Positions 5,841 through 61,100 of a stretch of 64,000 nucleotides of DNA are shown here, piece after piece. Source of the DNA: Bacillota bacterium (GTDB lineage: Bacteria; Patescibacteriota; Patescibacteriia; Patescibacteriales; UBA12465); contig JBLNBA010000002.1 in the NCBI GenBank assembly GCA_050259635.1, forward strand, positions 26,681 through 90,680. Reading direction: 5' to 3'. Both the position numbers and the translations under genes were made by a program. Each line of letters starts with the position of its first letter. Positions within the stretch are counted from its first letter, which is position 1. The notes under the pieces are model-generated. The model saw only the letters and a list, made by a program, of their open reading frames with translations. It ran no database searches and had not been told where the DNA came from.

Positions 5841-6278
5841 ATGAAAGATTCAAAATTTAGAAATAAGGTGTATCTTATTTCCGTAGATTATTCGCAAAGC
5901 CTGGACCAGATGGCGGTGGCATGCAATCTATATTGTAAGGACGGAGAATTTTCTGAGGAGATATATAAGAAAGATCCGAAGTACAAGAACAGGAAAGTTC
6001 TGAGACAAGCAAAGCTGTTTAATTCCAAGGAAGAGCTGGAATTATCTGTAAGAAGTGAAAAATACTTACCAGCGGCTATGAATGACCTGCTTTCATTCTG
6101 CCTGCAATGGTACGAGCTTTGCCGGGATAGCATTATTGTCGCTTCTTGTATTATGCCCGGCAAACCGTCTAAATCAAGTTCGATATATCTGGTCAGCGGT
6201 AAGTATCTTCGGTTTGATTCTTCTTTTGAAAGAGTACCACGAAAATTTTATCTCGCAGTCAGAGACTTGGCAAGATAA
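5841..6278 (+). CDS. hypothetical protein, paralog B of twin cassette
   Basis: 145 aa. A purine-rich stretch (GAGAAAGGAAAAAAAA) precedes the ATG. Shares motifs with 5150-5737 (ISVDYSQSLDQ, RQAKLF, FYLAVR). Confidence 0.7.
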   Translation: MKDSKFRNKVYLISVDYSQSLDQMAVACNLYCKDGEFSEEIYKKDPKYKNRKVLRQAKLFNSKEELELSVRSEKYLPAAMNDLLSFCLQWYELCRDSIIVASCIMPGKPSKSSSIYLVSGKYLRFDSSFERVPRKFYLAVRDLAR

Positions 6279-6292
6279 AAACTGAAACTATT

Positions 6293-6320
6293 AAAAAAGC
6301 CCTCGGATCAGAGGGCTTTT
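6293..6320. terminator. bidirectional intrinsic terminator between convergent genes
   Basis: A-run, GCCCTC / GAGGGC stem with a 6-nt loop, then a T-run. Confidence 0.7.
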
Positions 6321-6325
6321 GTATT

Positions 6326-8149
6326 TCATCTCGTGCTGGTAGCGATAGGTGGAGTTCCGGTAGCGATGGGGGTGCTAGTAGAAGTAACGGGAGTGGAGGT
6401 GGCTTTTCCTACCAAACAAACTTCCTGCCAAGGAACGTAGTGGGATTGGAAGCGTCGCTTCACTTCCGGTGTCGTAGTGGAGCCCTCAGGATATACCACG
6501 GTGTAATCAAACCAGGCGTCAGCGCCGTTATGGGCTTTTTCGGTGCACTTTCTTTCTCCGGGCTTGAGTTCTTCCGTCTCGACGATCTTGGTGGGGGCTG
6601 GTTTTACAATGTTATATATGACGGGATAGGTAGTCGTGGCTGTCCGCCCATCTTTTGTGCCCCAGAAGTCGAAATAGAGATCGTTTCCTTCGATCCTTGA
6701 TTGGATTAGGATATTACTGCCGGTATCGTTGATAAAACGGAAATCTGGCCAGGGGTCGTAAATAGTGGCATCCGTTCCGGCCGGTTCATAATAAGAAACC
6801 CGGTAGGAATGGTTTTGCCTGGCCGTAATAGGGAGTCCGGATCCGAGGGCAGTGCGGAACATCGTGGTACCGACTTGGCAGAGACCGCCGCCGTATTCGG
6901 GTATCGTGCGGTTGTTCTTGATTACGAGTTCGGGGACATAGCCTCCTGAGGCATCGATGTTACCTAAAGCCTTGATCAAGGAGAACTCGTCTCCGGGCTT
7001 GATTATCAGGCCATGGAGAGCGTTTGCTCCGTTACTGATATTATGGCGTCGATTAGAGGAGGACCCGGAGAAGTTTGAATGGCCAGTTCCGATAATCTCT
7101 TTTATATCCATAGCCGCTGCCTCATCCGGAGGGGTGGCGACGATTTTTAGTTCGATCTTCTGCGGTCCCTGGGCGGAAGAATAGGCGGCTGCTATTTCAC
7201 GGGAACTAGTAGCAGTTTCCAACTTGTATCCGTCTTTACCGACTTGCCAGCTGGTAACTTTTTCATCCTTGATTTCAAAGCGGGGGGATTGGGGCTCGAT
7301 ATCGATCTCGGGAGCAATCTTTTCGGCAAGGTAGCTTTCTATTCGGGATTCATCATAATCAAGTTCGTAGCCACCGGATTGCTTCTTGGCGGTCAGCCAA
7401 GAGGCAATTTCTTCGCGTCCCACTTTCCACTCCTTATCCTTAAAGGTTAAAGAGAGGAGAACGTCGCTCATGTCGGCGGCTTTCTTTTCCAGCCCTTGCA
7501 GGTCGCGAGCGTAAACCTGCGGATAGGCGGTTTTAGTTTTGAGGACGATAGTGGAATTATCAAAGGAGCGAAGCCTGGAATCGATTTCAGAAAAAAGATT
7601 GTCCCAATCGGCTTCTTTTCCTGTCATGTCCTCGGAGACAGAAAATTTTCCATCTTTAAAGGTAAAGGAGGCATCCACCGCCGGTTTCTTACTTCCAGGC
7701 AAGGCTTCCGAGATGGCTTGTTCTACTTTGTCGCGGTTAATGAAAAACTCGGGCCTTATCTCCGTCGCTTTGTTGCGAACCGCACCCAGCCAGCGGCTTA
7801 GCAAGGAGATATGGGAATAGGAAAACAGTTTTTCTTCCAGCGCTTCGGTTTGATAATTATAATTATTATAAGATACCCCGGAATCAAAAGAAGCGGCGAT
7901 AGCTGGCAAGTCAAATTCTTCGTTATTATAGGTAATCTTTATCCCCTTTTCTTCGAAAGTGGCCGTGGCTACTTTAATCTTATCGGCTGCAGTCTGGAGA
8001 CTTAGGCCGCCGATCGCTATGTTGCCATAGAAGGTGTTTTCCGGCAGGAGCCCGTCACTGTCCTTCCTGGTTAAAAGATATACGGCTGATATTAAAAAGA
8101 CCACCAGAATGGCGATCGCCGTGATTGCTGCAGGGGTCGGTTTTTTCAT
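6326..8149 (-). CDS. VanW-domain envelope protein with N-terminal membrane anchor
   Basis: 607 aa. TM helix AAITAIAILVVFLISAVYLL, VanW core GGGLCQVGTTMFRTALGSGLPITARQNHSYRVSYY, and a Thr/Pro-rich C-terminus. Confidence 0.85.
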   Translation of the reverse strand: MKKPTPAAITAIAILVVFLISAVYLLTRKDSDGLLPENTFYGNIAIGGLSLQTAADKIKVATATFEEKGIKITYNNEEFDLPAIAASFDSGVSYNNYNYQTEALEEKLFSYSHISLLSRWLGAVRNKATEIRPEFFINRDKVEQAISEALPGSKKPAVDASFTFKDGKFSVSEDMTGKEADWDNLFSEIDSRLRSFDNSTIVLKTKTAYPQVYARDLQGLEKKAADMSDVLLSLTFKDKEWKVGREEIASWLTAKKQSGGYELDYDESRIESYLAEKIAPEIDIEPQSPRFEIKDEKVTSWQVGKDGYKLETATSSREIAAAYSSAQGPQKIELKIVATPPDEAAAMDIKEIIGTGHSNFSGSSSNRRHNISNGANALHGLIIKPGDEFSLIKALGNIDASGGYVPELVIKNNRTIPEYGGGLCQVGTTMFRTALGSGLPITARQNHSYRVSYYEPAGTDATIYDPWPDFRFINDTGSNILIQSRIEGNDLYFDFWGTKDGRTATTTYPVIYNIVKPAPTKIVETEELKPGERKCTEKAHNGADAWFDYTVVYPEGSTTTPEVKRRFQSHYVPWQEVCLVGKATSTPVTSTSTPIATGTPPIATSTR

Positions 8150-24979: not shown

Positions 24980-25038
24980 ATTATCAGGGTTAATAAAAAA
25001 GGCGCTCTTTCTAAGCGCTGTAAAGAGCTTTACTTTAT

Positions 25039-25073
25039 AAAAAAATAGCCGGTTTAATAGCCGGCTATTTTTT
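25039..25073. terminator. bidirectional intrinsic terminator
   Basis: A-run, ATAGCCGG / CCGGCTAT stem with an 8-nt loop, then T6. Confidence 0.8.
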
Positions 25074-25083
25074 AATCTTTCAA

Positions 25084-26478
25084 TTAACGATCTCTATTGC
25101 GTTCAGAACGAGAATTATCATTGTTGTCGTGCCCGCGGTGTTTGCCGTTATTGCCATTCTTCATCTGGCCATAATGGTTGCCATTATTACCGTTATTCTT
25201 TTGCTGGTAGATATTACCATCATTGGTATCGGAGTCATTTGAACCGGAGCCGATCGTGGTGATCGTTACCGTATTGGATTCGCCCGACATATTGCCTCTC
25301 ATGTCGTAAGCTCGGACATAGTAAGAATAGGCGGTTGAAGCGGATAAGCCGTTATCGACGAAAGTGGTAGAGTAATCGATATTGGCTAACCATTCTCCAT
25401 TCCGATAGATGTTGTATCCGACGACTTCCACATTGTCAGTAGAGGCGGTCCAAGAGAGCTTAGCGCTATGAGCGGAAGAGTTGCTTACCGTTAGGTTGGT
25501 CGGAGCGCTCGGAGCGATGGTGTCGTTCTCGAACCAAGATTCAGATCCGGAGGTGAAGACGAGATTAGATTGTCCGGAGACATTTCCCCTCTCGTCATAG
25601 GCTCTCACGAAATACGAGTAGCCGTGGTTCGGGTTGATACCGGTGTCAGTGAAGGAGTTTGTCGTACTAATGGCAATCCAGTCTCCATTACGGTAGATGC
25701 TGTAGCCAGCAACGCCGACTGCGTCCGTTGAGGCGGTCCAGCCAAGCTTCACACTATTGCTGGAGGTGGCGGTAATGGATAAATTTGTTGGAGTGCTTGG
25801 TGCGATGACGTCCGGGCTATTACTTATTTCAGCCAGAGTAGAAATGCTAAGGGTATTTGAGCTGTTCGATAGGTTGCCTTTGGCGTCATAGGCTCTGATA
25901 AAGAAGGAATAAGTGGTGGATGCTTTCAGGCCGGAAAGCTTGAAACTGGTTGAGGAAGTGCTAGCCAGCCATGTGCCATCTTTATATATATTATATCCTG
26001 TAACTCCTACATTATCAGTTGAGGCGGTCCAGCCAAGGTTGATTTCCGTCGGTGAGACGGCAACGCCTACCAAGGCAGAAGGAGCAGTGGGCATGGTCGT
26101 GTCAGTAGTAGTGGCAGCGCCTGTCGTGATCATGACCTGGGCAGTGGAACTGGAATTATTTCCGTTTGCATCGAATGCGTAAATCGAATAGGCATAGGTC
26201 GTGCTAGCGACTACAGAAGAGTCCAGATATGAAGTGCTGGTAGCGGTGGCAATGACCGAATTCCCCCTTAATACCTTATAGCCCGATACCCCGGTATTGT
26301 CTGTTGAGGCGGTCCAGCCTAAGGAAACTTGATTGGAAGCATTAAGAGACGCGGCCAGATTCGTCGGGACCGTGGGTGGCGTGGTGTCATCTAAAGCCAG
26401 AACCTTAAGGGCTGTAAATGGCATCACGGCGAGGAAAAACGCCAATAGAACTCCTAAGAATTTATTGAATTTTTTCAT
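25084..26478 (-). CDS. secreted/anchored protein with four fibronectin type III repeats and an Asn/Gly/His-rich tail
   Basis: Signal/anchor MKKFNKFLGVLLAFFLAVMPF. Four repeats of about 90 aa, each with LGWTASTDNxGVxGYxIYRNG...Y.Y.VRAYD..GN. ATG 26478 is chosen; the track start at 26547 would lie upstream of the predicted promoter. Confidence 0.85.
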   Translation of the reverse strand: MKKFNKFLGVLLAFFLAVMPFTALKVLALDDTTPPTVPTNLAASLNASNQVSLGWTASTDNTGVSGYKVLRGNSVIATATSTSYLDSSVVASTTYAYSIYAFDANGNNSSSTAQVMITTGAATTTDTTMPTAPSALVGVAVSPTEINLGWTASTDNVGVTGYNIYKDGTWLASTSSTSFKLSGLKASTTYSFFIRAYDAKGNLSNSSNTLSISTLAEISNSPDVIAPSTPTNLSITATSSNSVKLGWTASTDAVGVAGYSIYRNGDWIAISTTNSFTDTGINPNHGYSYFVRAYDERGNVSGQSNLVFTSGSESWFENDTIAPSAPTNLTVSNSSAHSAKLSWTASTDNVEVVGYNIYRNGEWLANIDYSTTFVDNGLSASTAYSYYVRAYDMRGNMSGESNTVTITTIGSGSNDSDTNDGNIYQQKNNGNNGNHYGQMKNGNNGKHRGHDNNDNSRSERNRDR

Positions 26479-26526
26479 AAATTTATAAAAATTAATTATT
26501 AGCTCTTGTTTTTGGCTTGTGTAATA

Positions 26527-26555
26527 TAATACAAGCCAGATTGTCATTTGTTACA
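26527..26555 (-). promoter_or_regulatory. putative ECF-type promoter driving the FN3 protein gene
   Basis: On the minus strand, TGTAACAAAT-N13-GTATTA (that is, TGTAAC-N17-GTAT). The architecture is identical to 26589-26617. Confidence 0.5.
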
Positions 26556-26569
26556 CGCAGGTATATAAT
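26541..26569 (+). promoter_or_regulatory. sigma70-type promoter for the sigma/anti-sigma operon
   Basis: TTGTCA-N17-TATAAT. Confidence 0.5.
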
Positions 26570-26588
26570 AATTTGACCCTTAAGGGCT

Positions 26589-26617
26589 TGTAACAAATAG
26601 AGGGGAAAGCGGTATTA
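26589..26617 (+). promoter_or_regulatory. putative ECF-type autoregulatory promoter
   Basis: TGTAACAAAT (26589-26598), N13, GTATTA (26612-26617). Lies 17 nt before the sigma gene ATG. Confidence 0.5.
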
Positions 26618-26634
26618 ATAAATAGGCGAAACAA

Positions 26635-27144
26635 ATGCTGAAAAATAGGGATAATTTCCTTACTCATTACAACCAGTTCAAGGACAAGATATTCAACTAT
26701 TTTCTTTATCGGACTGGCTTTGATCGAGCTTTAGCGGAAGATTTGACTTCTGAGGTTTTCATGAAGGCCTTAAAAGCTTATGACGGCTTCGATCGCAATA
26801 AGCCTTTCCAGCCCTGGATTTTTACAATCGCTCATAATCATCTGATTAACCATTACAGCCAAGCCGCTAAAGCTACATTTCCCCTGGATGAGTTTGAGGA
26901 CCTGATGCCAGAAGAGGACAACCATGAGGTAGAAATAAGATACGAGGTGGAACAAGTTATGAAGGCGATGGAATCGATGAGCTTTAGTGATCAGGAAGTC
27001 CTGAAACTAAAATTCATCGAGCAGTTGGATAATCAGGAGATAACTGAGATCCTCGATAAGGACGAGGGGGCGGTTAGGACTCAGATCAGCCGCTGTTTGA
27101 AACGATTGCGTCGGATTTTAGGAGATATGAATAAGATTGAATAA
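26635..27144 (+). CDS. ECF-family RNA polymerase sigma factor
   Basis: 169 aa. Region 2 (DLTSEVFMKALKAYDGFD...FQPWIFTIAHNHLINHY) and region 4 HTH (LDNQEITEILDKDEGAVRTQISRCLKRLR). Confidence 0.9.
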   Translation: MLKNRDNFLTHYNQFKDKIFNYFLYRTGFDRALAEDLTSEVFMKALKAYDGFDRNKPFQPWIFTIAHNHLINHYSQAAKATFPLDEFEDLMPEEDNHEVEIRYEVEQVMKAMESMSFSDQEVLKLKFIEQLDNQEITEILDKDEGAVRTQISRCLKRLRRILGDMNKIE

Positions 27145-27145
27145 A

Positions 27146-27880
27146 ATGGATAATTTAGAAAAAATATTAATGGCGTTGCCGGAGAATAAGCTTAGTCGCA
27201 AGGCGGACAGGCTGATTAAGTTCAGGCTGGAAAAGACGATGGTTTTATCGTATTTTAAACGCGTAGCTGAGGGGCCACAAGTTCCTTGGCCTAGAGCCAT
27301 TGTCGCCGGGCTTGCCCTGTTCATGATTTTTATCGCCACTTCCGTCTATGCTTATGCGAGCGATAAGATTTTGCCCGGCGACCGGATATATCCTCTTAAG
27401 CGGGCGGTAGAAAAGATTGAAGAAGCCGTTACTCCGGGTACCGCCAAGATCAAGGTATATGAAAAGCATTCTTCTCGGAGATTACAGGAGGCGCGCGATT
27501 TGAGCACCAAGACGGCCGCCGTATCCGAAAAAAGCGCGGAAGAGAAGGCAAAGGACAGCGAAAATATAAAAAAGAATATTGATTCAGCCGTAATTAAACA
27601 GCAGGCCATCGTGGAAAAGATAAATAAGCTGGATGATTATGACAAGGCGGTAAAGACCATCGATAAAGCGAAAAAAGCAGATAAAAAAAAGACCGAGTAT
27701 CTCGGCCAGATTATTAATAACGCTAAGACAGAAAAGGATGAAGAAAGAATAAAGAAGGCTGAGCAGGCATATGAGTCGATAGATAAAGCGGAGTATAAGG
27801 TTAAGGACAAGAAGATAAAAGAAGAAAAAGTGAAAGAAGACAAGGGGGATAAAGGAGGAAGGAATAAGGAGAAATATTAA
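27146..27880 (+). CDS. putative anti-sigma factor (single TM, Lys-rich extracytoplasmic domain)
   Basis: Starts directly after the sigma gene stop (TTG 27137 is an alternative start). Short cytoplasmic N-terminus, TM AIVAGLALFMIFIATSVYAYA, then PGDRIYPLKRAVEKIEE and a Lys/Glu-rich domain. Confidence 0.65.
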   Translation: MDNLEKILMALPENKLSRKADRLIKFRLEKTMVLSYFKRVAEGPQVPWPRAIVAGLALFMIFIATSVYAYASDKILPGDRIYPLKRAVEKIEEAVTPGTAKIKVYEKHSSRRLQEARDLSTKTAAVSEKSAEEKAKDSENIKKNIDSAVIKQQAIVEKINKLDDYDKAVKTIDKAKKADKKKTEYLGQIINNAKTEKDEERIKKAEQAYESIDKAEYKVKDKKIKEEKVKEDKGDKGGRNKEKY

Positions 27881-27890
27881 TTATTAATAT

Positions 27891-27920
27891 AAAAAGAGGG
27901 AAGTGTTAGCTTCCCTTTTT
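27891..27920. terminator. bidirectional intrinsic terminator
   Basis: GGGAAG / CTTCCC stem flanked by an A-run and a T-run. Confidence 0.7.
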
Positions 27921-27927
27921 AAATTGT

Positions 27928-28428
27928 TCACAATTTGCAGCCGGCGATCCAGTAATCGAATTTAGACTTCTGACCTAGAAGTATTTTTGAAGAGCTAAAT
28001 TTCTTGGATATGGGGTCATAAATCCAGATGTTCTGCGTGATTGAATCACCCTTTGGGCTTATTTCCCAAGTGGCATTTTGCCAGTCACCGACGATAACTT
28101 TTTTCTTTGAGCAATTCTTTTCCATATTACTGCGATAATCATCGTTCGCTAATAAGTACATGAAGAATTGCTTATCAAGTAAAAAGTAGCCGTCTTTTTC
28201 CATTTGGATCAACAAAGAATCAAACGTGGTAGAATTGTTGGAATAATAAAAATTTACTCCATCACAGCTATAGTCATCCCTAATTGGAAATTTTCCGAAA
28301 TAACGGAGGTTTAAAACTGAAGAGGAAATGGTTGGGCCCGATTCCTTTTCGCTACTAAAGGAATTGCAGGATGTTAACCCGGTAAGAGATAAAACGGCAA
28401 TAATAGCCGCCATAATGATTCTGTTCAT
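27928..28428 (-). CDS. hypothetical lipoprotein
   Basis: Signal peptide MNRIIMAAIIAVLSLTGLTSC with a lipobox-like LTSC. ATG 28428 is chosen. Has its own TTGACA-N17-TACTAT promoter upstream. Confidence 0.7.
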   Translation of the reverse strand: MNRIIMAAIIAVLSLTGLTSCNSFSSEKESGPTISSSVLNLRYFGKFPIRDDYSCDGVNFYYSNNSTTFDSLLIQMEKDGYFLLDKQFFMYLLANDDYRSNMEKNCSKKKVIVGDWQNATWEISPKGDSITQNIWIYDPISKKFSSSKILLGQKSKFDYWIAGCKL

Positions 28429-28530
28429 GGCTGATGAATTTTGAGATTGGTTTATAAAAGAACTAACCGGAAATAGTATCATTATATTTAAGATTTGTCA
28501 ATAATAGGTTTACTAAAAAAACAACCTAAC

Positions 28531-28556
28531 AAAAAACCGCCATTAAGGCGGTTTTT
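28531..28556 (-). terminator. intrinsic terminator ending the 16S transcription unit
   Basis: On the minus strand, AACCGCC TTAA TGGCGGTT followed by T6. Lies 145 nt after the 16S 3' end. Confidence 0.7.
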
Positions 28557-28571
28557 GCATTTCAACTTGGT

Positions 28572-28608
28572 AATTTTGAGTCTAATCGGCACCGATTCAG
28601 GATAATAA
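28572..28608. repeat. inverted-repeat arm (3' flank of 16S), partner of 30230-30265
   Basis: AATTTTGAGTCTAATCGGCACCGATTCAGGATAATAA is near-complementary to the 5'-flank arm. This is the presumed pre-rRNA processing stem. Confidence 0.65.
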
Positions 28609-28700
28609 TTTGTTTATTACCTTGCGGTAATATCATAGTACCGAAGTACTATGTCGACTATTGTCTTCTTCATCGATGATGAAGGACAAATACTCCCTAG

Positions 28701-30178
<1,478 letters not shown>

Positions 30179-30229
30179 TAGTATAGAGATCATCGGTCCC
30201 GAAGGACTGATGAAAAGATTCTGGTTGAT

Positions 30230-30265
30230 TTATTATCCGAATTGATGCCGATTAGCATCAAAATT
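30230..30265. repeat. inverted-repeat arm (5' flank of 16S), partner of 28572-28608
   Basis: TTATTATCCGAATTGATGCCGATTAGCATCAAAATT. Lies 52 nt upstream of the mature 16S 5' end in the transcript. Confidence 0.65.
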
Positions 30266-30523
30266 TTTCATGTTTATTCACCAAGTTTGAAATTGTCAAA
30301 GTTCCGTTGCTTGAAAGCTCGCAAGCTAGACAGAAAAAAACAGAGATATACAAATATCTTGTTTTTATTAACCTATTCTTGTTTTATGTTTTCAAGTAAC
30401 CCTATCTTATATCATTTGCAAACGGCTGTCAAGTATCCTCTGATTGTATAATTTTATTGGAAAAAATCTATAAAATCTGGTATATTATGGGTGACTATAT
30501 AGCTATCAATAAATTGGTTTTTT

Positions 30524-30694
30524 ATGCAAAATAACGGACAGGAGACCGGAGAGGTGGAAAAGATCTTCGCTGAAGCGAAGCAAGCCCTTTTTTCTCTCCA
30601 TAGCCGGAAATTAGAGTTAATCAAAAGATTTAAAAACGCAGCCGATGCCGAGGAGGCGGCCGATATCTTAAATAAGATTCAATCTCTGCGCTAA
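30524..30694 (+). CDS. small hypothetical protein (56 aa, below the ORF-track cutoff)
   Basis: Translated by hand as MQNNGQETGEVEKIFAEAKQALFSLHSRKLELIKRFKNAADAEEAADILNKIQSLR. The stop is 9 nt before the start of the 1269-aa ORF. Confidence 0.45.
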   Translation: MQNNGQETGEVEKIFAEAKQALFSLHSRKLELIKRFKNAADAEEAADILNKIQSLR

Positions 30695-30703
30695 CCTAAT
30701 AAT

Positions 30704-33700
30704 ATGAAAAACGCGGAAACCCTAAAGATTTCCAAGGAAAAGAAGCCAAGTAAAGCGCCAATCGCGGCTGAGGCCTTATTAGATAGGCGGGAAGAGATTG
30801 CGGCCTGGAAAGACCAGATCATGAATGCCAAAGGTAAGAAGCAGCAGGAATTAAAGAACCAATTCAAACAGGAGTTCGGGAAAACATACAGCACCAAGCT
30901 ATTAGAGCGATTGAATATTGAATTGCAGGAGCAGAACCTTATTGCTCAGGCCGAAAGCCTGATTAATCAGGCGACGGTGGATGTAAGAGAAGAAGCGAAG
31001 GCGGAAAGCGCGGTAGCGGAGATCAAGCAATATAAGGAAGAAGCGGAGAATATCGATGAAGAGAGGAAGGGTGTCGTGAATGAAAGCTTAAGAAAAGCAG
31101 GAGAAGTTTCGGGCCTTAAGAGGATAATGGACAAGATCTTAAAAGATTATCCTTATTTCGAAGAGAAGGACCTGGAAAAGAAGGAAAAGAAAATTGTCTC
31201 AGAAAAAGGTCATGCCAATCTGAGTGACGATGAATGGGCGGTGATAGAAAAAGCGCAAGCAGCCAGTAAGGCGGCGGCGGTTGAAGATTTTGATTTTCCG
31301 CAGGCAGATCCTTCCCAATCAAGCGATGAGGAAAGTATTGATGAAGAGGGTATCCGCCGGGATATAGCTGAACAGGAAAACTGGGAAAAGGAAGCGGTAG
31401 ATAAGGAAAGGAATAGTGGAACTAAACCAGAGAGGAGCCACGTAAAATTTACCCCTGAAGAATGGTCCGTCATTGAAAAGGCGCGTGCCGGCGTTAAAGC
31501 TGAATCTGAGGCATCTTTTCCTCAGTCGGATCCCTCTCAATCCGGAAGTAAAATTGATTTTGATTTCGATGCCATTTCTAAAGACATGGCCGAGCAGGAG
31601 GCTTTAGAAAAGCAAGGTGCGTTGAGAAAAAGTATAAAAACTGGGAATGAAGAAGAAATTAGAAATAAGGAAGCGAGCGTCGATCCTGTTAAGGCCGAAC
31701 TTGCAGCTGAAGATAATCAACCGGAAGAAAAGACGATAGAAGTTGTTGCCGATCCGGTAACCGACCAGGACGGAGAAAATAAAAATGAGGACATAGAAGA
31801 TATCTTCGGCAAAGAAGTGATGGATAAATTCCGGACCCTTGGATTAGATAACGAGGATTTAAGGACGATTCCGGGAATCGAGGATCTTGATCCTATCACC
31901 CAGATGACCATCGCCTCATCCTTGGAGGTGATGGCATTGCAGCGCGCAGAGAAAGAAAAATCGGAGCTGATTGCCGCAACTATGGAGGGGAAAGGACGCA
32001 TTGGCAGGGTATTTAAACAGATAGCAAACAGTTTCCAGCAGGGGAAATATGAAAAACAGGCTTTGCATAATCAACTGGGGATAGAAAAGAACGGCCCCGT
32101 GCTGGCTTCCCTGGTCCGATGGGCGAAAGAATTTGAAATCAACGGCTTTGAATATGAAAATGATGGAGAGAAGGTTTCAATGGTAAATTACGCATTACCC
32201 TTCGGGCAAATGCGTATTCCGGAAGAATTTTTGATCAAATTCAATGTTGCTGCTTCAGACTTAGCCAACCTGCCGAAGCATTTCCAATATGAAGCTGGCG
32301 CTTTAGAAAAAAGCGGCAACCAGAAGAAGCGGGAGCAGGAGTACGGCGAGGCTCAGGAAGCTTATGGAAGCGCCAGGCAAAAGATAGTATCAATATTAAA
32401 GGCTCAGGGAGTGAATGATTACGAGTTAGCGGAGCTCACTCTTAAGGCAGATGGTTTAGTGGATATGATGCAGAATTTGGCTGCTAATCCTGACTTGGAA
32501 AAGGAGTGGAATAAAATGGCGAAAGGCTCGTCATACTTTAAGAACTTGGTCAGTAAGGAAAATGCCCAATACTTCGCCGCTGGTTATGCTTCTAAGCTGG
32601 CTCTTGCGGGGATCATGGGTGCTGTCGCTGTTCCTCTGGTTGCAGCCGGCGTTGCTTCTCTGCGTGCCCTGAAACGCTCTCGGAATGAACTGGTTAAGAA
32701 AGACAGCCTGGCAAGTACGAATGATCGGCCAAAAAATGATTTGGTCGAATTTAGAACCGCTTCCGTCAAGGCTTTGCAGGAATTGGTGCCGCCGGAATTT
32801 TCGATGGATCCCATGAAATGGGTTAATGAGCTGGCAACCGAAGAACAAAAGGATAAATATTTCGATCATATATCGGCTATTAAATATGCCGATGAGAAAA
32901 TGAAATCAATTGCAAAGAAGGAATCCAAGGATGTGGGCAGGAAGATGCTGGACGCTAATGAGCTGGCAGGCAGACTAAAAAGAGACGTTGAGATAATGGA
33001 TAACAAATATAGGTCCGGAACTTATGATGTGAGCGCTCTTGCCCGGCGCGTACGCTTTACCTATGACTCTATTCAGAATGGGCTGGTAAGTTTTGGCGAG
33101 AGCACTGATCGCCCCCTGAATATGGCAAGGCTCATCCAAACCTTGCAGCGATGTGATCGGATAGTTCGGCAAGAAGGCGATATGGAAGAAAACCAGAAGC
33201 TGGCCGAGCAAATGATCGCTAAAATCTTTGAAAGAGGGCAGAAGAAATTAAGTTCGAATAGGCGTCGGTATCTGGCTCAAAGCATGGCAAAGGGCGCGTT
33301 TATGGGGGCTGCCTTCGCTTTGGCTGGCCGGGCAGTGAGTTCCTTGTTTGATAATATCGGCGGCCACAGTACTCCCGGGACGATGAGGGTGCCTGGTAAC
33401 ATTAACCTAGAACATGATGCGCCGGTTTCTGAAACTGTAACAGGGAACGAGTCAGAGGTGCTCGGTGAACCCGCTGCGGGCGATGTTGCGGACAAGATGG
33501 CGGATAGCCAAACGCAGGCGGCCACTGAAAGCCCGATAGCAGAAGGAGTGCGGATCAACCAGGGTGGCCCAAGTTCAGAACCATCCGCTGATGCGGTTCG
33601 CCAGGCGGTGGAAGGAAAAGCGGATTCATTTAGAGACTCCATCAGCAATGAGAACCTTAAAGGGTCAGATTCAGTCTGGCGTTCTACTAAGCAAATATTT

Positions 33701-34513
33701 TTAGACAATGCCGGCAAGCTTGGATACAAGGGTGACCTTAATAATGTTTCGGCTTTGGACAGATGGGCGGAAATGAATGCGAACACGGCTTTGGCTAATA
33801 GCGGGGATATTACCGACAAGGTCTTTGAAGGCAATATTGTCAATCTGGAAAAGAGCGGTGGAGAATACTTCGTTTCTTTAGAGGCAGGGGATGGGCCGGA
33901 ACCCGATTATTTGCCTAACATCGAGGCGGACGAAGCTCTGGCGGTAGAGGCAGAAGCACCAGTGGGCGAAACTACCGAAGGGGTATCGTCTCTTGATATT
34001 GTCCAGGAAAGATATGGGGTGGAGGAAGCCGATATAATGACGGCTCGCGGTTCGGTGATAACGGCGGATATCGACGGTAAAGAGGTCTCCATTAATTTAG
34101 ATACCGATAATTATTCATACTTCCAAGGCGATCAGGAAATAACCGGCCATTTGGATGGTTCTCAGAATATATATGAAGCTTTGGGAAATGATGGAGGAAA
34201 AAACTTTGAAGCGGACATCGAGCCCGCGGCTGAGCCGAACATAGAACAGCCCGCTACTCCTCCGACGGCCGAAGAGATCGGTAAATATATAGAAAACAAC
34301 CGCCTAACTATGTCTGCGGTTGAAAGGCGCGAGGATGTGCTGGCTCAAATTGAGAAGGCAACCGGAGTAAATGATTTGGAGTCATTATTAACCAAGAAAG
34401 AAAATCATTTTCTTAATGATTTGATTCAAAAGATTGATTCTAAAGGTTTCAAGCCGGGAGGCGGCAAGGAGCTCCAAGAATTTATGGACAAGGTAGTGAA
34501 AAAATATAAATAG
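30704..34513 (+). CDS. large acidic hypothetical protein with two predicted internal TM helices
   Basis: A 1269-aa uninterrupted ORF. The N-terminal ~600 aa is Glu/Lys-rich. Hydrophobic segments are KLALAGIMGAVAVPLVAAGVASL and AKGAFMGAAFALAGRAVSSLF. No motif I recognise. Confidence 0.8.
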   Translation: MKNAETLKISKEKKPSKAPIAAEALLDRREEIAAWKDQIMNAKGKKQQELKNQFKQEFGKTYSTKLLERLNIELQEQNLIAQAESLINQATVDVREEAKAESAVAEIKQYKEEAENIDEERKGVVNESLRKAGEVSGLKRIMDKILKDYPYFEEKDLEKKEKKIVSEKGHANLSDDEWAVIEKAQAASKAAAVEDFDFPQADPSQSSDEESIDEEGIRRDIAEQENWEKEAVDKERNSGTKPERSHVKFTPEEWSVIEKARAGVKAESEASFPQSDPSQSGSKIDFDFDAISKDMAEQEALEKQGALRKSIKTGNEEEIRNKEASVDPVKAELAAEDNQPEEKTIEVVADPVTDQDGENKNEDIEDIFGKEVMDKFRTLGLDNEDLRTIPGIEDLDPITQMTIASSLEVMALQRAEKEKSELIAATMEGKGRIGRVFKQIANSFQQGKYEKQALHNQLGIEKNGPVLASLVRWAKEFEINGFEYENDGEKVSMVNYALPFGQMRIPEEFLIKFNVAASDLANLPKHFQYEAGALEKSGNQKKREQEYGEAQEAYGSARQKIVSILKAQGVNDYELAELTLKADGLVDMMQNLAANPDLEKEWNKMAKGSSYFKNLVSKENAQYFAAGYASKLALAGIMGAVAVPLVAAGVASLRALKRSRNELVKKDSLASTNDRPKNDLVEFRTASVKALQELVPPEFSMDPMKWVNELATEEQKDKYFDHISAIKYADEKMKSIAKKESKDVGRKMLDANELAGRLKRDVEIMDNKYRSGTYDVSALARRVRFTYDSIQNGLVSFGESTDRPLNMARLIQTLQRCDRIVRQEGDMEENQKLAEQMIAKIFERGQKKLSSNRRRYLAQSMAKGAFMGAAFALAGRAVSSLFDNIGGHSTPGTMRVPGNINLEHDAPVSETVTGNESEVLGEPAAGDVADKMADSQTQAATESPIAEGVRINQGGPSSEPSADAVRQAVEGKADSFRDSISNENLKGSDSVWRSTKQIFLDNAGKLGYKGDLNNVSALDRWAEMNANTALANSGDITDKVFEGNIVNLEKSGGEYFVSLEAGDGPEPDYLPNIEADEALAVEAEAPVGETTEGVSSLDIVQERYGVEEADIMTARGSVITADIDGKEVSINLDTDNYSYFQGDQEITGHLDGSQNIYEALGNDGGKNFEADIEPAAEPNIEQPATPPTAEEIGKYIENNRLTMSAVERREDVLAQIEKATGVNDLESLLTKKENHFLNDLIQKIDSKGFKPGGGKELQEFMDKVVKKYK
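31209..31625 (+). repeat. intragenic tandem duplication (about 76 aa x 2)
   Basis: HANLSDDEWAVIEKAQAASKA...FPQADPSQSS...DIAEQENWEKEA aligns with HVKFTPEEWSVIEKARAGVKA...FPQSDPSQSG...DMAEQEALEKQGA. Confidence 0.7.
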
Positions 34514-34526
34514 TCGTGACATCTAC

Positions 34527-34555
34527 AAAAAACGGCCAGAAATGGCCGTTTTTTT
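34527..34555 (+). terminator. intrinsic terminator
   Basis: AACGGCCA GAAA TGGCCGTT followed by T7. Confidence 0.85.
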
Positions 34556-34591
34556 AGATTATATGATTATGACGGCCAGGCGGGGATAAGA

Positions 34592-34620
34592 TTGACAGTT
34601 AATGAAATAAATGCTAGTAT
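34592..34620 (+). promoter_or_regulatory. sigma70-type promoter
   Basis: TTGACA-N17-TAGTAT. Confidence 0.5.
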
Positions 34621-34683
34621 ATAAAGAATCTTTTGGGATTCGCTAATAAACTAGATCATTAACAATATAAATAAAACTTAAAG

Positions 34684-35619
34684 ATGAAAGCAGCCTATGT
34701 ATTATTATTGGCCCTCTTGATATCGATTGGCCAATTCGCCTGTGCTCAGGCGATTGTAAAAAATCCTTCCAGCGAGGAGATGGAAATATCTTCGCGCTCA
34801 GGTACGACCATAATCAATCCGGGGCAAGAAAAGCTAATCCCATGGCTGCCACCCAACGGCAGTATGGAAGTTACTTTACGCACCCGGAGCGGCCGTTCTA
34901 TTAAATCCGAGCGAATGTCTCTGCAAGCAAAGGATGGGAGAGCGACTTTAACTTCCATTTCGTCAAAACAAGATGGACGGAAAGTTCCATCAGTGCCACC
35001 TTCTGCAACCACCACCACCGAGTTAAAGACTACAGGGGTCCGAATGCAGGATTTGGTGGTTGAGAATCTATCCGGTCATCGCTTTGTGATTATCGGACAG
35101 CCGAATAGCTCCTTCGTCGGGCTTGCCCTTGCCGACAAGGCAATATCAAGCTCACAAAGAGTTCCCACCGGCTTGCATCAGCTTTCTGCTTTATTGGACA
35201 TGGATGCAGAGGGCAAGAGCACAGGAAAGAATTTTGCTCAAGCGGTAATTAAATTTATCGTCGTTGAAGGCGATGAAAAGATTACTATCCGTCCAGAGAA
35301 TGTTGTCCAAATTGGCGGTGAGCTTGTAAAGGCACGTCTTCGCTCCTTATTTCCCTTTAAGGTAGTTATTGTTTCTACCGGCGAATTACAAGGCAAGGCA
35401 ATGAGATCTCGAGGGTTTCTCCGCGGAGTGTATTCCTTTAACACCGGATTTAACACGATGTCTATCCAATATTTCAAGGATGGTGTTAAATACCAGAGCG
35501 ATGTCGAGTTCATTGTAACTCGAGAAGAAAAGATAATCTCAGTTGGTGAATCTGCTCTCAGGAATACAGTGGCGGTTAGCGTACCGTCAGCAGCCCAAGG
35601 CGGTTACAGCACCTTTTAA
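34684..35619 (+). CDS. secreted hypothetical protein
   Basis: 311 aa. Signal peptide MKAAYVLLLALLISIGQFACAQA. Composition is beta-rich. No recognised motif. Confidence 0.75.
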   Translation: MKAAYVLLLALLISIGQFACAQAIVKNPSSEEMEISSRSGTTIINPGQEKLIPWLPPNGSMEVTLRTRSGRSIKSERMSLQAKDGRATLTSISSKQDGRKVPSVPPSATTTTELKTTGVRMQDLVVENLSGHRFVIIGQPNSSFVGLALADKAISSSQRVPTGLHQLSALLDMDAEGKSTGKNFAQAVIKFIVVEGDEKITIRPENVVQIGGELVKARLRSLFPFKVVIVSTGELQGKAMRSRGFLRGVYSFNTGFNTMSIQYFKDGVKYQSDVEFIVTREEKIISVGESALRNTVAVSVPSAAQGGYSTF

Positions 35620-35638: not shown

Positions 35639-35667
35639 ACCCGATTTATTTTAAAGTCGGGTTTTTT
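35639..35667 (+). terminator. intrinsic terminator
   Basis: ACCCGA / TCGGGT stem with a 12-nt loop, followed by T6. Confidence 0.6.
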
Positions 35668-35685
35668 CTTTTATTGACCTTCAAA

Positions 35686-37079: not shown

Positions 37080-37562
37080 ATGGCTGGAGAAGATGATGAT
37101 AAGAAGAAGATGATGATGGTCAAAGCCGGAGTCTGGGTCATATCAATCATGATCGTCCTTTTTTGGGGAGTGAATTTACGTAATTCCTTTTCTGCTTCTA
37201 CCCCGGCCGAAGACAATAACCTGAATTCTATCGAAAAAGAAATAAGCCAGACCGTCAAAGAGATCAAGGATAGTAATAGTCAGCCGGAAAAGGGCCAAGG
37301 GTTAGACGACCAAGCGGCGGGTTTGATTAACGGCCTTAAAGAGGATATTGAAAATCGCCAAGGAACTGTTGCTAGCCCCACGGCCAATAATGCCGCTAGT
37401 TCTAGCCCTGAGATATCCACTTCCTCGCCGTCCTCCCTTCCTGCCACTAGCACTGTAAGACAAAATTGTCCGCAATATATCAACTGTATGCCGACTTTTG
37501 GAGAACCGCGACCTTGCGTCATACCGCCAGGCTGTGAAAACTATACACAAATCGCTTATTGA
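37080..37562 (+). CDS. hypothetical membrane-anchored protein
   Basis: 160 aa. N-terminal TM ([15 protein letters not shown]), a Ser/Ala-rich linker, and the C-terminal motif [23 protein letters not shown]. The stop is 1 nt before the gyrA ATG. Confidence 0.6.
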
Positions 37563-58103: not shown

Positions 58104-58172
58104 TTTAAAGACCCCTTTTTGATATATTACCGGCTGGGCTGAAGCCCGGTTTTGGCTCGCCGGAGTAAAATT

Positions 58173-61100
58173 GTGCTGAAGAACAAAAAGAATATAATCC
58201 GCTTTGCGGCCTTAAGCTTCCTGATTGTTATCGGGCTGGCTTTTTATAATTTGGCGAGTGCCCAAGTCGATGTGGGAATGAATGAGATCGGCAATAACAT
58301 TGAGCTTGGACAACAAGATCCGCGGACGACGGCCGGAAGGGTGATAAATATCGTGATGCTTTCTCTGGGCATTATCTGTGTCGGTCTCATCATTTGGGGC
58401 GGTTTTGTTTGGATGACCTCGAACGGCGATGAGAGCAAGGTGGATAAAGCCAAGTTAATCCTAAAAAATGGGGTGATAGGTTTGGTTATTATACTATCGG
58501 CCTGGGGCATAGCGACTTTTGTATTGACCAGGCTCCTAGGGTCGAACAATGGCAATGGCACGGGCGGCTGCGCGGACGGCCAGATAAACCCTTGCGGCTG
58601 CGGCGGCAGTATGGCTTGTATCGATGGCTCTTGGGGGTCCTGTCTGGGCTCGGATTGCAATAGCGGCGGCGGCCCCGAAAGCTGCGATAGCAATACTATC
58701 CTTGGCGGTTGCCAGGGGGTAGACCAGATTTGTGCCGTGGACAATTATTGCGATAATGAGACCTGCTCATGCGTCCCGAAGTCTAGCCTTGGGGAATCCT
58801 GTGATGCCGATGAAAGCAATCCGTCGTGTGAGGCGGACAATTCGCTTTGCGGTGATTATTTGAGCTGCAACCCCGAGTCTTGCCTCTGTGAGGGGCAACC
58901 GGTGATCACCCGAGTGAGTCCGGCCGGCGGCTTTTGTGAAGAAGACCAGAATAAGCCATGTTTGACCGATGATGACTGCACGCTAAAGTGCGATCTCACG
59001 ACACCGAATGGGGATAACGGCAATATTATTACCATCAGCGGCACCAATTTCGGTGCTTTTGATCCTCAGGCCAGCAAGGTCTTTTTCGGCGGCGATATTC
59101 CCGGCCTTTCTCCTTCGGCGATCAATCCTCAATGTATTGATTCCTGGACGAACAAACAGATCATAATCGTCGTTCCTGAAGGGACGACCTCCGGCCCTTT
59201 GAAGGTGCAATCCGCGGATGGCCAGAATGACACCACTGATAATGATGTCGGCCCTATTGTCCCTGATTTCATAAATAATGATATTAAGAGACCGGGTCTT
59301 TGTTTGCTTACGCCTGAAACCGGTCGGTTGAGCGACAAGGTTAATTATTTCGGTATCAATCTTTATGAAGGCCAGGCCTATTTCGGCGATTACGTACGCA
59401 ATGTCCGCGGTCTGGATTCACAATTTAATAATCCGCAGGGCGTGGCCGGTACGACCACTGTCCCTAATATCCAAAAAGGGGGCATGACGAGCTTTGTGGT
59501 CGGGAGCGTGAACGGCTTCCCCCAGAAGAGCAATTACGTTACCTTCTTAAAGGAACAAGAACCTGATGCCGGTCCTTATATCAGCTATTTCGAACCTGCC
59601 ACTGGACGGGCGGGCCAGTATGTTACTATTCACGGCGGCGGCTTGGGTGGGGCCCGAGGGACGGCAAAAGTAATGTTCGGAGATAAAGAAGCTGATTATT
59701 CCTTTCCGGATGTTTGCGCGTCTTCTGTCTGGAGCGATAAGCAGGTTATCGTGAAGGTCCCGGCTGATTTACAAGATGGCTATTATCCTATCGCCATAAT
59801 TTTTGGAGACGGAGAACGGATTGATTCGCAAAATGCTAACCCCAATGCCTTTAATGTCGATGCTAATGTTTCTTTGAAATCCAGCATTTGCCGCATATCG
59901 CCGGTTAAGGGGCCGGTGGGAACCAGCGTTTCTATCTGGGGCGAGTATTTTGGAAACAATGGCGGCGACGGACTTAGCGTCTTCAGCCGTGATAAGGGCG
60001 TAAGCGGTACGATTTCCACTAACCAAGGCGCTCAGCGCTTATTGCCGGCCGTTCCGACCGGAGCGGTCAGCGGTCCGGTTAAAGTGGTTAAGAATGGAGA
60101 ATGGGGGAATGATACTAATTTCGAAATCGGCACTTGTACGAGCAATCAGGAATGCGGTAGCGAGACCTGCTGTCCGGCCGGAACCTATATGCAAGGGAGA
60201 TGCGCTCCTTCTTTGGCGAGCTGTTATATAAGCATCAAGACCTCGGTTTTTGAATGGGGATTTTCTACCGGATTGGGAGAGGGCGGCGATACGCCGGTAG
60301 ACTATGATAGCTGTAACGGCATGGCTCAAGCGCTTGGAGCCTGCCAGGTCAATGCTTTTTGTCCTAATTCCCCGGGTGTATGTTCGCCTTTCGCCGGTGC
60401 TCCCAAAAACCTGGGTCCTTGCGATTCAACCTGCGCGGCAAACCCATCTTGTCTCGGTCAGAGCTGTTCTTTTGACAGCGGTCTGGATGCCTGCGTATTA
60501 AACGAAGGTTCTTGCTCTCTGCCAGAAGATTTTGCTTGGGGTGAATTTACTCAAGAAAGGACTTGCCAAGTTTTTCCTCAGTTCGGCGATAAGGCCCATT
60601 GGCAAATCACCACCCCGACATCATGCCCCACCGGCTGGGTGCGTCTCGACGGCAATCGCTGCGTGGATAGCGTGAGCTCTTCTGCCTCTACCTGTGACGT
60701 CTGCGCCGCCGGTTTCTCATGCAAGGACGCTAATGGAGCGGGTAAATGCGTAACGGCGGAACTTTGCCGCGGTGATGCTAAGTGCCAGGGGCAGTCTTGC
60801 GTCAGCCAAGCAAGCGCCCGTTGCGATTGCTGCTGTGAAATCGGCCAGGATAGCCGTGATTGTTGTGCCGGCCTGGTTTGCGGCGGGACCTGTGGCACTG
60901 ATACAACGGATGACGGAAGCGGCTTCGGCGAGTGCACCGGTTGTAAAGTGGAGGTCGGCGGCCAGGTGGATGTTGCGAAATCAGATGCAGCCTGTAACTG
61001 TTCGTCATCTTCCGGAAAATATTGCGACACTTCTTCCGCAACTGGAGCCTGTGTAGATTGCAGCCGTTTATCAGCCTCGAGCTGCCTTGACCACAGCGGC

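Follow-up and report, generated by a model that had tools for sequence, protein, structure and literature searches.

A large, undescribed family of fast-diverging proteins in Patescibacteria, encoded beside a small partner gene

The DNA analysed here is a 64-kb stretch of contig JBLNBA010000002.1 (assembly GCA_050259635.1, positions 26,681 to 90,680), referred to as the window and used as the reference sequence throughout. Within its positions 30524-35619 lie the three open reading frames (ORFs) under study, which the first-pass annotation of this DNA had located correctly: orf56 (30524-30694; 56 amino acids, aa), a gene for a protein of 1269 aa that we call the giant (30704-34513), and p311 (34684-35619; 311 aa), all on the plus strand. 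That annotation regarded the three genes as an orphan island, possibly a mobile-element remnant. Our comparisons instead place the giant in a large, undescribed protein family restricted to Patescibacteria, and show that the three genes are a vertically inherited, positionally conserved unit of one Patescibacteria clade, whose divergence outpaces that of the surrounding housekeeping genes several-fold.

The family became visible in an exhaustive phmmer search of giant residues 371-1269 against 1.84 billion cluster representatives (50% identity clusters), which returned 314 relatives at E ≤ 1e-3, 198 at E ≤ 1e-10 and 25 at E ≤ 1e-30, so that "orphan" is the wrong word for this gene. The relatives are 900-2300 aa long, most of the 149 that were listed having 900-1600 aa; the architecture counts below cover these 149 representatives of the 314 and are complemented by a 28-sequence full-length alignment and by hidden Markov models (HMMs) of the individual blocks. 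Word-indexed searches, run with the giant, with p311 and with the core alignment, recovered nothing but the query: low-complexity words had saturated the candidate lists. Orphan calls made from such searches fail for fast-evolving, low-complexity proteins, and in this case only exhaustive profile searching brought the family to light. The deposited copy carries the name [quoted passage not shown] (MAG, metagenome-assembled genome), and the few family members that carry a source name are all called "hypothetical protein".

Pfam, NCBIfam, PHROGs, PADLOC and the PDB sequences gave no match for orf56, the giant or p311 (for the anti-phage defence models of PADLOC, none at E ≤ 0.1), in keeping with the earlier remark that no motif could be assigned to any of them. 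No Pfam or NCBIfam family is common to 22 core sequences, and 36 further diverse full-length members contain none at E ≤ 1e-3. The PDB was searched with the single sequence and with three profiles (A1, A2 and A3); among solved structures, only PDB 2gqb is linked by sequence, through a 31-residue motif that it shares with block C, described below (E 7e-4). With Foldseek, nothing in the PDB was significant (best E 0.37 for the core and 0.31 for block C), and the core list was topped by helices of ATP-binding-cassette exporters and G-protein-coupled receptors, which are noise. Clear homology to a characterised family was thus found neither in the curated libraries and PDB sequences nor by Foldseek against the PDB and BFVD. 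By the evidence of these searches the family is dark: no database describes it.

The order that defines the family is block A, hydrophobic segment 1, block B, hydrophobic segment 2. The commonest architectures among the 149 representatives contain it, and the window giant carries all four core blocks in this order. Ahead of them lie an N-terminal motif (aa 18-75, 30755-30928; L..L.EI..W...I..AKG.....L...FK..FG..Y...L), which is conserved only in closer relatives and matched by its HMM in 22/149 representatives, and an acidic Glu/Lys-rich low-complexity region (aa 76-365, 30929-31798), delimited from the charge table and aligning mostly as gaps. Residues 101-400 and 901-1200 are strongly acidic. 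Block A (aa 366-615, 31799-32548) is a conserved helical domain with one beta-hairpin and is found in 131 of the 149. The description of the first ~600 aa as Glu/Lys-rich and coiled-coil or disordered therefore holds for aa 76-365 only and not for aa 366-615, where the predicted local distance difference test score (pLDDT) is ~80.

Segment 1 (aa 632-653, LALAGIMGAVAVPLVAAGVASL, 32597-32662) is Ala/Gly-rich, with a conserved central proline (P644) and a C-flank rich in Lys and Arg (K/R); its Kyte-Doolittle hydropathy (KD) of 2.24-2.35 (2.24 in a 19-residue window) is strong, and with its flanks (aa 616-665) it is present in 129/149 representatives. The inter-segment region (aa 654-863, 32663-33292) is highly charged and helical in the structural model, with K/R clusters on both sides; it comprises a variable charged stretch (aa 666-780) and block B (aa 781-860, motif GLVNFG; HMM matches in 128/149). 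Segment 2 (aa 864-882, GAFMGAAFALAGRAVSSLF, 33293-33349) is likewise Ala/Gly-rich, glycine-zipper-like (GAxxGAxFAxAG) and contains one Arg; with its flanks (aa 861-890) it occurs in 104 of the 149. Of the two hydrophobic helices proposed earlier, the first is confirmed as strong, whereas the second is weak (KD 1.35) and, family-wide, short. They lie ~210 aa apart, not ~230 as first estimated. The possibility that block A with segment 1 and block B with segment 2 arose by internal duplication was rejected (hhalign probability ≤3%).

The remainder of the giant consists of a variable Ser/Thr/Ala/Glu/Pro-rich linker (aa 883-969, 33350-33610; 12-19% identity with many gaps, pLDDT <50), block C (aa 970-1076, 33611-33931) and a variable acidic tail (aa 1077-1269, 33932-34513; 18-26% identity). 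The tail holds two short blocks common only to the closest relatives, Ct1 and Ct2, whose HMMs match 9/149 and 11/149 representatives. The acidic C-terminal region noted previously extends over ~390 aa (61 Asp and Glu against 19 Lys and Arg in aa 901-1200). Block C, a small globular domain with the motif SNEGLxGxxDSVWRST..IF..NA..LGYxGD...AL..WA..QT...NSG..DKVFEGNxVxLE, is the best conserved part of the giant (48-55% identity) and a frequent accessory (67/149). About half of the family members carry both the low-complexity linker and this domain.

AlphaFold2 modelling of the core from 22 sequences gave a mean pLDDT of 64 and a predicted template modelling score (pTM) of 0.44. Block A is helical with a beta-hairpin in this model (pLDDT ~75-90 over core residues 1-220), and block C reaches ~90. 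Block C modelled alone (61 sequences; pLDDT 82.8, pTM 0.71) has a beta-alpha-alpha-beta-beta order. Its GD..W...A / G.N.V pattern made LysM a candidate, which was rejected: neither a scan of 22 members (E ≤ 1), nor the search of the PDB with the profile, nor the listed top 50 Foldseek matches showed a LysM. The POTRA domain was a second candidate for block C. The resemblance to 2gqb, a "conserved hypothetical protein" of 130 aa, pairs KELAKELGYSGDMNDSASMNIWLHKQV with NAxxLGYxGDLNDxxALxxWAExQT of block C over the 31 residues mentioned above. It covers one helix-turn-helix stretch only, and 2gqb is absent from the listed top 50 Foldseek matches. Literature searches found nothing relevant on 2GQB.

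The acidic region of the window giant contains two ~33-aa repeats ending in FPQxDPSQS, at aa 173-206 (31220-31321) and aa 249-280 (31448-31543). Read from the sequence, their pattern is [FL][ST]xxEWxVIEKAxA...FPQxDPSQS. The homologues P0003 and P0004 likewise have two occurrences of a DPSQ-containing motif, in sequence that is otherwise unalignable; it may be a short linear binding motif.

Upstream of the giant, orf56 encodes a small protein of helical type with the family consensus EIExIFxEAKxxLxSLHxxKLELIKKF and, in an alignment of nine homologues, the invariant positions E12, F15, L22, H26, K29, L32, I33, F36 and I48. An HMM built from these nine homologues matches the small ORF directly upstream of the giant in the window and in L002-L012, L014 and L022 (E 1e-9 to 1e-29; L numbers denote individual loci), and weakly in the distant locus L025; an orf56-family gene also precedes the giant in L026 and L028-L044, a trait of one subfamily. 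The stop codon of orf56 lies exactly 9 nt before the giant ATG in the window, as first reported, and the gap is 4-37 nt in ~30 loci. The coupling of the two genes that the 9-nt spacing had suggested is thus borne out by their tight pairing across these loci.

As an independent check, metagenome contigs were searched with orf56 alone, which yielded 20 loci. In 15 of them a giant-family ORF of 874-1637 aa (one of the 15 cut by the contig end) starts within ~30 nt downstream. Two others end too early to hold a whole giant gene; in L045 the start of a giant homologue is visible before the contig end, and in L027 nothing was detected. The remaining three (L035-L037) keep orf56 together with a ~150-aa fragment whose only match to family members is with their N-terminal part; they also retain a p311-like gene, MBL and NDK, and two of them come from contigs of 288 and 747 kb. 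In L036 the arrangement was read at 5956-7928, and we read the three loci as carrying a natural deletion of the giant's membrane core in one lineage. The joint retention of orf56 and the N-terminal fragment suggests that orf56 works with the N-terminus of the giant, on which it would act. In L036, GyrA is split into two ORFs, suggestive of indel errors or decay in that assembly.

The third gene, p311, encodes a predicted Sec-type signal peptide with a cleavage-like site, AQA|IVKN, followed by a ~95-aa N-terminal domain, a Ser/Thr/Pro-rich linker and a ~180-aa C-terminal domain. The N-terminal signal-like segment ending in AQA agrees with the clean signal peptide seen in the first pass. Homologues are 13-34% identical, all with signal-like N-termini and a mature start of the V.N.S type. 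Hints of a beta-sandwich stayed below threshold (NEAT, E 0.12; Glucodextran_B, E 7e-4 in two homologues). In 18 of the 20 syntenic-clade loci with enough downstream DNA, the p311 HMM matches the next gene after the giant; p311 is absent in L012 and L040 and from the distant family contexts. By sequence, p311 is best described as a clade-specific, fast-evolving companion of the giant gene, and it is possibly also the giant's partner at the cell surface.

The signals around the genes point to two transcription units. A promoter-like site found by consensus scan (TTGGAA-18-TATATT with TG, 30457-30486, plus strand) precedes orf56, and an intrinsic-terminator-like hairpin with a U-tract follows the giant (34522-34560, plus strand; from RNA folding, dG -19.8 kcal/mol, z -7.56, equalled by 0/200 shuffles). 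Next comes a second promoter-like site from the same scan, matching the consensus at 10/12 positions (TTGACA-17-TAGTAT with TG, 34592-34620, plus strand), and p311 itself ends at a terminator-like hairpin (35639-35662) with a T-run (together 35639-35672, plus strand; scan and sequence reading). The promoter and terminator ascribed to p311 in the first pass are therefore recovered. Given the giant's own terminator and the separate promoter-like site of p311, orf56 and the giant look like a bicistronic unit, of which orf56 is the first gene, and p311 like a separate one.

On the other side of orf56, and divergent from it, lies a bacterial 16S gene (28701-30180, minus strand). There is no 23S gene in the 64-kb window, so that the 16S gene is unlinked to 23S there. 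A promoter-like site facing the 16S gene (TTGACA-17-TAAGAT, 30432-30404, minus strand; consensus scan) stands back-to-back with that facing orf56, ~25 nt apart, within 30404-30486. As the divergent arrangement is conserved in L002-L005, L008 and L014 and the promoter-like sites are back-to-back, expression of the giant operon may be coupled to transcription of the rRNA. A 27-nt inverted repeat (28572-28598 / 30239-30265, 85% complementary) brackets the 16S gene and probably forms an rRNA processing stem.

The position of the three genes is conserved well beyond the window. Scanning one genome for each GTDB species with the core alignment, we obtained 16 loci; the full conserved order is 16S (minus strand), then orf56, giant, p311, MBL, NDK, p160, GyrA, RmuC and p314. 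The run from orf56 through a p311-like gene to p314 was found by tblastn in L003, L004, L006-L008 and L011-L014, and also in L022; TrpRS lies upstream in L002, L005, L008 and L014, and the divergent 16S gene directly upstream of orf56 in the six loci named above. The 16 loci are labelled Patescibacteria group, Falkowbacteria, Parcubacteria or Minisyncoccia, apart from six labelled "uncultured Gammaproteobacteria" (L004, L006, L011-L013 and L016) and one labelled Candidatus Saccharibacteria (L015). Five of the six (L004, L006 and L011-L013) have the window's gene order and 80-89% GyrA identity to it. The labels "Bacillota" for the window and "Gammaproteobacteria" for several of its relatives look wrong: DUF5667 and a T4SS_pilin domain, the latter on a protein of 1936 aa, are hallmarks of Patescibacteria present in the window, and these, the synteny with titled Patescibacteria and Falkowbacteria MAGs and the 80-90% GyrA identity indicate Patescibacteria. 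Every traceable family member is of Patescibacteria origin, by record or by shared synteny, which upholds the earlier view that the module is lineage-specific.

Composition also speaks for a native origin. The GC content of the three genes is 0.444-0.468 (0.474 ± 0.030 for the 39 genes of the window) and that at third codon positions 0.455-0.509 (0.523 ± 0.043), and their distance in relative synonymous codon usage is ordinary for genes of their length. With such composition and conserved synteny, the locus is not an island. No direct or inverted repeats were found flanking the module and no integrase or transposase among the neighbours scanned with Pfam, and the nearest tRNA is 23.6 kb away; the first-pass annotation had likewise seen no integrase, repeat boundary or tRNA target. 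One might still suppose a remnant of a prophage or other mobile element, with the giant resembling a tape-measure protein and the small ORF and secreted protein as cargo. Tape measures are long helical proteins with Gly-rich hydrophobic segments, and in the BFVD Foldseek search with the core, unnamed and tape-measure proteins were indeed the best matches (E 4e-4 to 1). However, the template modelling (TM) scores of these matches are 0.07-0.12 and the root-mean-square deviations 30-76 Å, amounting to no real superposition, so that they indicate a resemblance between long helices and no structural homology. PHROGs, IMG/VR and 50,697 phage records contain no giant-family homologue, and in many genomes the module occupies an identical chromosomal location, surrounded by housekeeping genes. 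We therefore reject the mobile-element remnant, which in our estimate is highly improbable.

The giant and its companion evolve far faster than their surroundings. The 16S identity to the window is 98.2% for L002, 97.7% for L003, 97.4% for L005, 97.2% for L008 and 92.7% for L014. Between the window and the relatives with 97-98% identical 16S (L002-L008), protein identity is 86-90% for GyrA, 82-86% for RmuC, 78-82% for MBL and NDK and 57-91% for orf56, compared with 32-38% for the giant, 27-37% for p311 and 31-38% for p160. Over all relatives, the giant is 27-38% identical, and the closest pairs still have diverged giants (L007 and L022, GyrA 94% and giant 31%; L006 and L007, GyrA 93% and giant 45%). 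Within the giant, the N-terminal motif is 57% identical to that of the L002 protein and 26-34% to those of the other three compared; blocks A and B have ~24-34% identity and block C ~50%, and the linker and low-complexity parts are barely alignable. The divergence fits either weak constraint on the helical and disordered parts or diversifying selection.

Very low sequence conservation, together with the truncation in L035-L037 and a split copy in L031, might suggest that these are chance ORFs or decaying pseudogenes. We attach practically no weight to this explanation, since intact frames of 3.3-4.9 kb are found in more than 25 divergent loci, the blocks and their invariant residues are conserved, two domains fold confidently, and conservation extends to the operon partner, the promoter-like site and the terminator. 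That long open frames are kept across such divergence argues for function. The concern that the large ORF might be poorly conserved or frameshifted in relatives does not hold generally: more than 25 loci have it intact, at 1100-1640 aa, and the exceptions are the lineage-specific truncation and the split copy. In L031 (2108-6489) the giant is split into ORFs of 147 and 1286 aa, and the matching 1460-aa ORF is intact in five other contigs with essentially the same block-HMM scores (L029, L030 and L032-L034); the split is either a sequencing error or a fresh pseudogene.

Replacement-type hypervariable surface loci such as those for O-antigen, S-layer and pilin offer a comparison. The present locus shares with them a fixed position, conserved flanks and inner genes that are only 25-45% identical at 97-98% 16S identity. 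It differs in that gene content and order are constant, and the divergence looks like rapid in-place evolution of one family. No sign of exchanged cassettes came up, no recombination test having been made. Literature searches for hypervariable Patescibacteria surface loci found nothing relevant.

The membrane topology of the giant poses a paradox. No N-terminal hydrophobic segment was seen in the window giant, consistent with the lack of a signal peptide noted earlier, and none of 129 members examined has a hydrophobic segment upstream of block A (0/129); the N-terminal half should for this reason be cytoplasmic. In the family, segment 1 is an uncharged stretch of 22-25 residues (median 24; Ala 25%, Gly 18%), and 127/130 members have a proline there, at relative position 0.52. 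The uncharged stretch of segment 2 has a median of 16 aa and no proline, and the region after it is K/R-poor, acidic and Ser/Thr-rich. The flanks are strikingly biased. Segment 1 has 2.2 K+R per 15 aa on its N side and 5.3 on its C side, the C side being higher in 98% of members, and segment 2 has 5.0 on its N side and 1.6 on its C side, the N side being higher in 99%. The window giant (2 versus 6 at segment 1, 4 versus 1 at segment 2) shows the same bias toward the inter-segment region. The positive-inside rule places K/R-rich flanks on the cytoplasmic side, and by this rule the region between the segments would be cytoplasmic. If both segments spanned the membrane, both large termini would then lie outside, which conflicts with the absent signal peptide.

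We tentatively favour, at a little less than even confidence, a reading in which the giant is a scaffold anchored in the membrane, joining a helical half in the cytoplasm to a stalk and globular domain at the cell surface. The signal-less N-terminal half, comprising the N-terminal motif, the acidic disordered region with its FPQxDPSQ repeats and block A, would stay in the cytoplasm, where the co-translated orf56 protein might bind or chaperone it. Segment 1 would dip into the membrane as a proline-kinked monotopic hairpin, leaving block B inside, which agrees with the K/R clusters on both flanks of the block B region. Segment 2 would be an N-in/C-out anchor that places the Ser/Thr-rich stalk, block C and the tail at the cell surface, and block C could there bind a conserved envelope ligand or a secreted p311-type protein. 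Fast divergence would then stem from weak constraint on the long helical and disordered parts, from diversifying pressure through phage or host contact, or from both. Such a combination of hairpin and anchor would reconcile all three family-wide observations, namely the missing signal, the charge bias and the cytoplasmic place that the positive-inside rule gives to the inter-segment region. The first-pass idea of a lineage-specific envelope module is plausible, and the products do carry membrane or secretion signals; for its envelope-spanning or cell-cell-interaction character the predicted topology is contradictory.

Several points weigh against this scaffold. Segment 2 is short and weakly hydrophobic and segment 1 looks like a normal span, so that hydrophobicity alone would give the segments the opposite roles to those proposed; the AlphaFold2 core model is of low confidence at both segments and at the linker. 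A central proline occurs in ordinary transmembrane helices too, and tails made of a linker and a globular domain are also found on cytoplasmic proteins, for example ZipA. Block C, supposedly exposed, evolves the slowest, a poor fit with simple antigenic diversification. The membrane core is lost in L035-L037 and is thus not essential there, and none of the curated or fold libraries searched gives a homology-based function.

An alternative is an entirely cytoplasmic, membrane-peripheral scaffold, such as a cytoskeleton-like, division or polar-organising tether, with the segments only in the inner leaflet, the linker and block C in the cytoplasm and p311 as a mere neighbour. We consider this unlikely, though deserving of serious attention. 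The lack of a signal peptide in all 129 members, the K/R clusters flanking both hydrophobic segments, the ~16 uncharged residues of segment 2 and the central proline of segment 1 are all compatible with it, as are the long, charged helical body and the acidic disordered region with its repeated short motifs; long helical scaffolds typically evolve fast. The absence of p311 in L012, L040 and all distant family contexts points the same way. Harder to accommodate are segment 1, which at 22-25 residues and KD >2 has the properties of a true span, the K/R-poor, Ser/Thr-rich character from the C-flank of segment 2 onward, unlike the rest of the protein, and the secreted partner gene that adjoins the giant in 18/20 syntenic loci.

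The opposite extreme is that both termini lie outside, or that the whole protein is exported into the membrane of a partner (host), acting as an adhesin, translocator or effector with orf56 as its export chaperone. This would follow from the charge bias if both segments span, since the positive-inside rule then puts the 210-aa middle inside and the termini out in 98-99% of members. The N-terminal region is strongly acidic, and acidic N-tails favour translocation driven by the membrane potential; the tightly coupled small helical partner resembles chaperone/substrate gene pairs, and the giants diverge extremely between near-identical backgrounds. Nonetheless, we know of no route that exports a signal-less N-terminal domain of 400-1200 aa, no signal is present in any of the 129 members, the annotated neighbours in ~40 loci include no secretion-system genes, and segment 1 has sufficient hydrophobicity for the cell's own membrane to capture it. 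Export is in our judgement quite improbable, even though membrane families enriched in the Candidate Phyla Radiation (CPR) have been proposed to mediate host interaction (PMC6744442).

The hubs PodJ, HubP and FimV combine a large, largely cytoplasmic coiled-coil or acidic repeat region with a membrane anchor and a wall-binding globular domain. The giant is like them in size, acidic disordered repeats, an anchor, a small globular domain on the other side and fast-evolving low-complexity sequence, a likeness of organisation and not one based on homology. It differs in that the searches found no sequence or fold similarity to them, in having no LysM, PG_binding, TPR or FimV motif, in its two segments 210 aa apart, in its 56-aa partner gene and in its confinement to Patescibacteria. 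A hub of the FimV/HubP type, which has a periplasmic LysM at the N-terminus, a single transmembrane helix, acidic repeats in the cytoplasm and a FimV motif at the C-terminus, was rejected as an assignment, there being no LysM- or FimV-related Pfam or NCBIfam match and the orientation of the acidic region being reversed.

Proline-kinked monotopic membrane hairpins are known from stomatin/SPFH proteins, caveolin and the "proline knot" of oleosin. Segment 1 resembles these in its stretch of 22-25 residues, its near-invariant central proline and the predicted cytoplasmic location of both flanks; the giant has no SPFH, caveolin or oleosin domain, and its hairpin is itself a prediction. A stomatin-type assignment was discarded: the central proline is present, but 58 members scanned gave no Band_7/SPFH match. 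Tape-measure proteins, finally, are similarly long and mostly alpha-helical with Gly/Ala-rich hydrophobic segments, and provide the weak top BFVD matches; they are set apart by TM-scores of ~0.1, the lack of PHROGs or viral homologues and the conserved housekeeping context of the giant. This assignment too was rejected, with PHROGs and Pfam negative, no viral loci, and 16S, NDK and GyrA as neighbours.

A large part of bacterial diversity belongs to Patescibacteria, whose lineage-specific membrane proteins mostly lack annotation. A survey of CPR genomes described 106 enriched families, most of them poorly annotated, and proposed a link to host interaction; 20 are enriched in Parcubacteria, and for 12 of these a membrane location is predicted (Meheust et al. 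2019, PMC6744442). The giant family fits this description and may be among them. What is defined here are more than 300 clusters (at 50% identity) that lack a Pfam, NCBIfam or PDB counterpart, with a domain map, a small partner gene and a secreted companion that occurs in one clade. With ~30% identity at 97-98% 16S identity, the module is a candidate for roles at the cell surface or the host interface, roles regarded as defining the episymbiotic lifestyle, and the clash between the missing signal peptide and a charge bias that is 98-99% consistent poses a concrete, testable problem in membrane topology. A bolder extension, which we regard as distinctly unlikely, would make the orf56-giant pair the core of an unrecognised, Patescibacteria-wide envelope organiser of unusual topology, be it a proline-kinked hairpin plus glycine-zipper anchor or the signal-independent exposure of very large acidic termini. 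Together with p311 it would build a contact or attachment zone of the episymbiont, and the divergence would reflect an arms race or host-specificity switching at a fixed locus.

Elsewhere in the window, four genes lie between TrpRS and 16S (24980-28700): an fn3 protein (25084-26547, minus strand), an ECF-type sigma factor (26635-27144), a DUF5667 protein (27137-27880) and a 184-aa lipoprotein-like protein (27928-28482, minus strand) with a GC content of 0.371, ~3.4 standard deviations below the genes of the window. L002, L005, L008 and L014 have just 240-850 nt at this position, and tblastn of the four genes against the 16 genome loci gave no match. It is this segment, rather than 30.5-35.6 kb, that looks like a strain-specific insertion beside 16S.

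Downstream of the module, p160 (37080-37562) encodes 160 aa that begin with a membrane anchor and end in a Cys-containing region rich in Pro, Ser and Thr. It always lies between NDK and GyrA, and its homologues are 27-38% identical to the window copy (compared with 80-90% for GyrA). The longest gyrA ORF, with a TTG start at 37498, overlaps p160; the gene call on Logan contig L001, which has the same sequence, starts gyrA at 37564. The 1936-aa protein mentioned above (58152-63962) has an N-terminal T4SS_pilin domain (PF18895) followed by TIG, Big_5 and fn3 domains, and represents the usual type of large surface protein in Patescibacteria; it has no relation to the giant family.

In other loci, a protein of the Pfam family DUF5663 (unknown function) lies between orf56 and the giant in L022 (1912-2274), and another just downstream of the giant-family gene in L015 (5970-6275), in a context unrelated to that of L022. 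DUF5663 as a general partner was rejected: it adjoins the family only in these two loci, is absent from the window and the other loci, and gave no match in the literature. In L021 (1-1903), the FtsH homologue beside a distant family member carries an intein (Intein_splicing, with a faint LAGLIDADG match).

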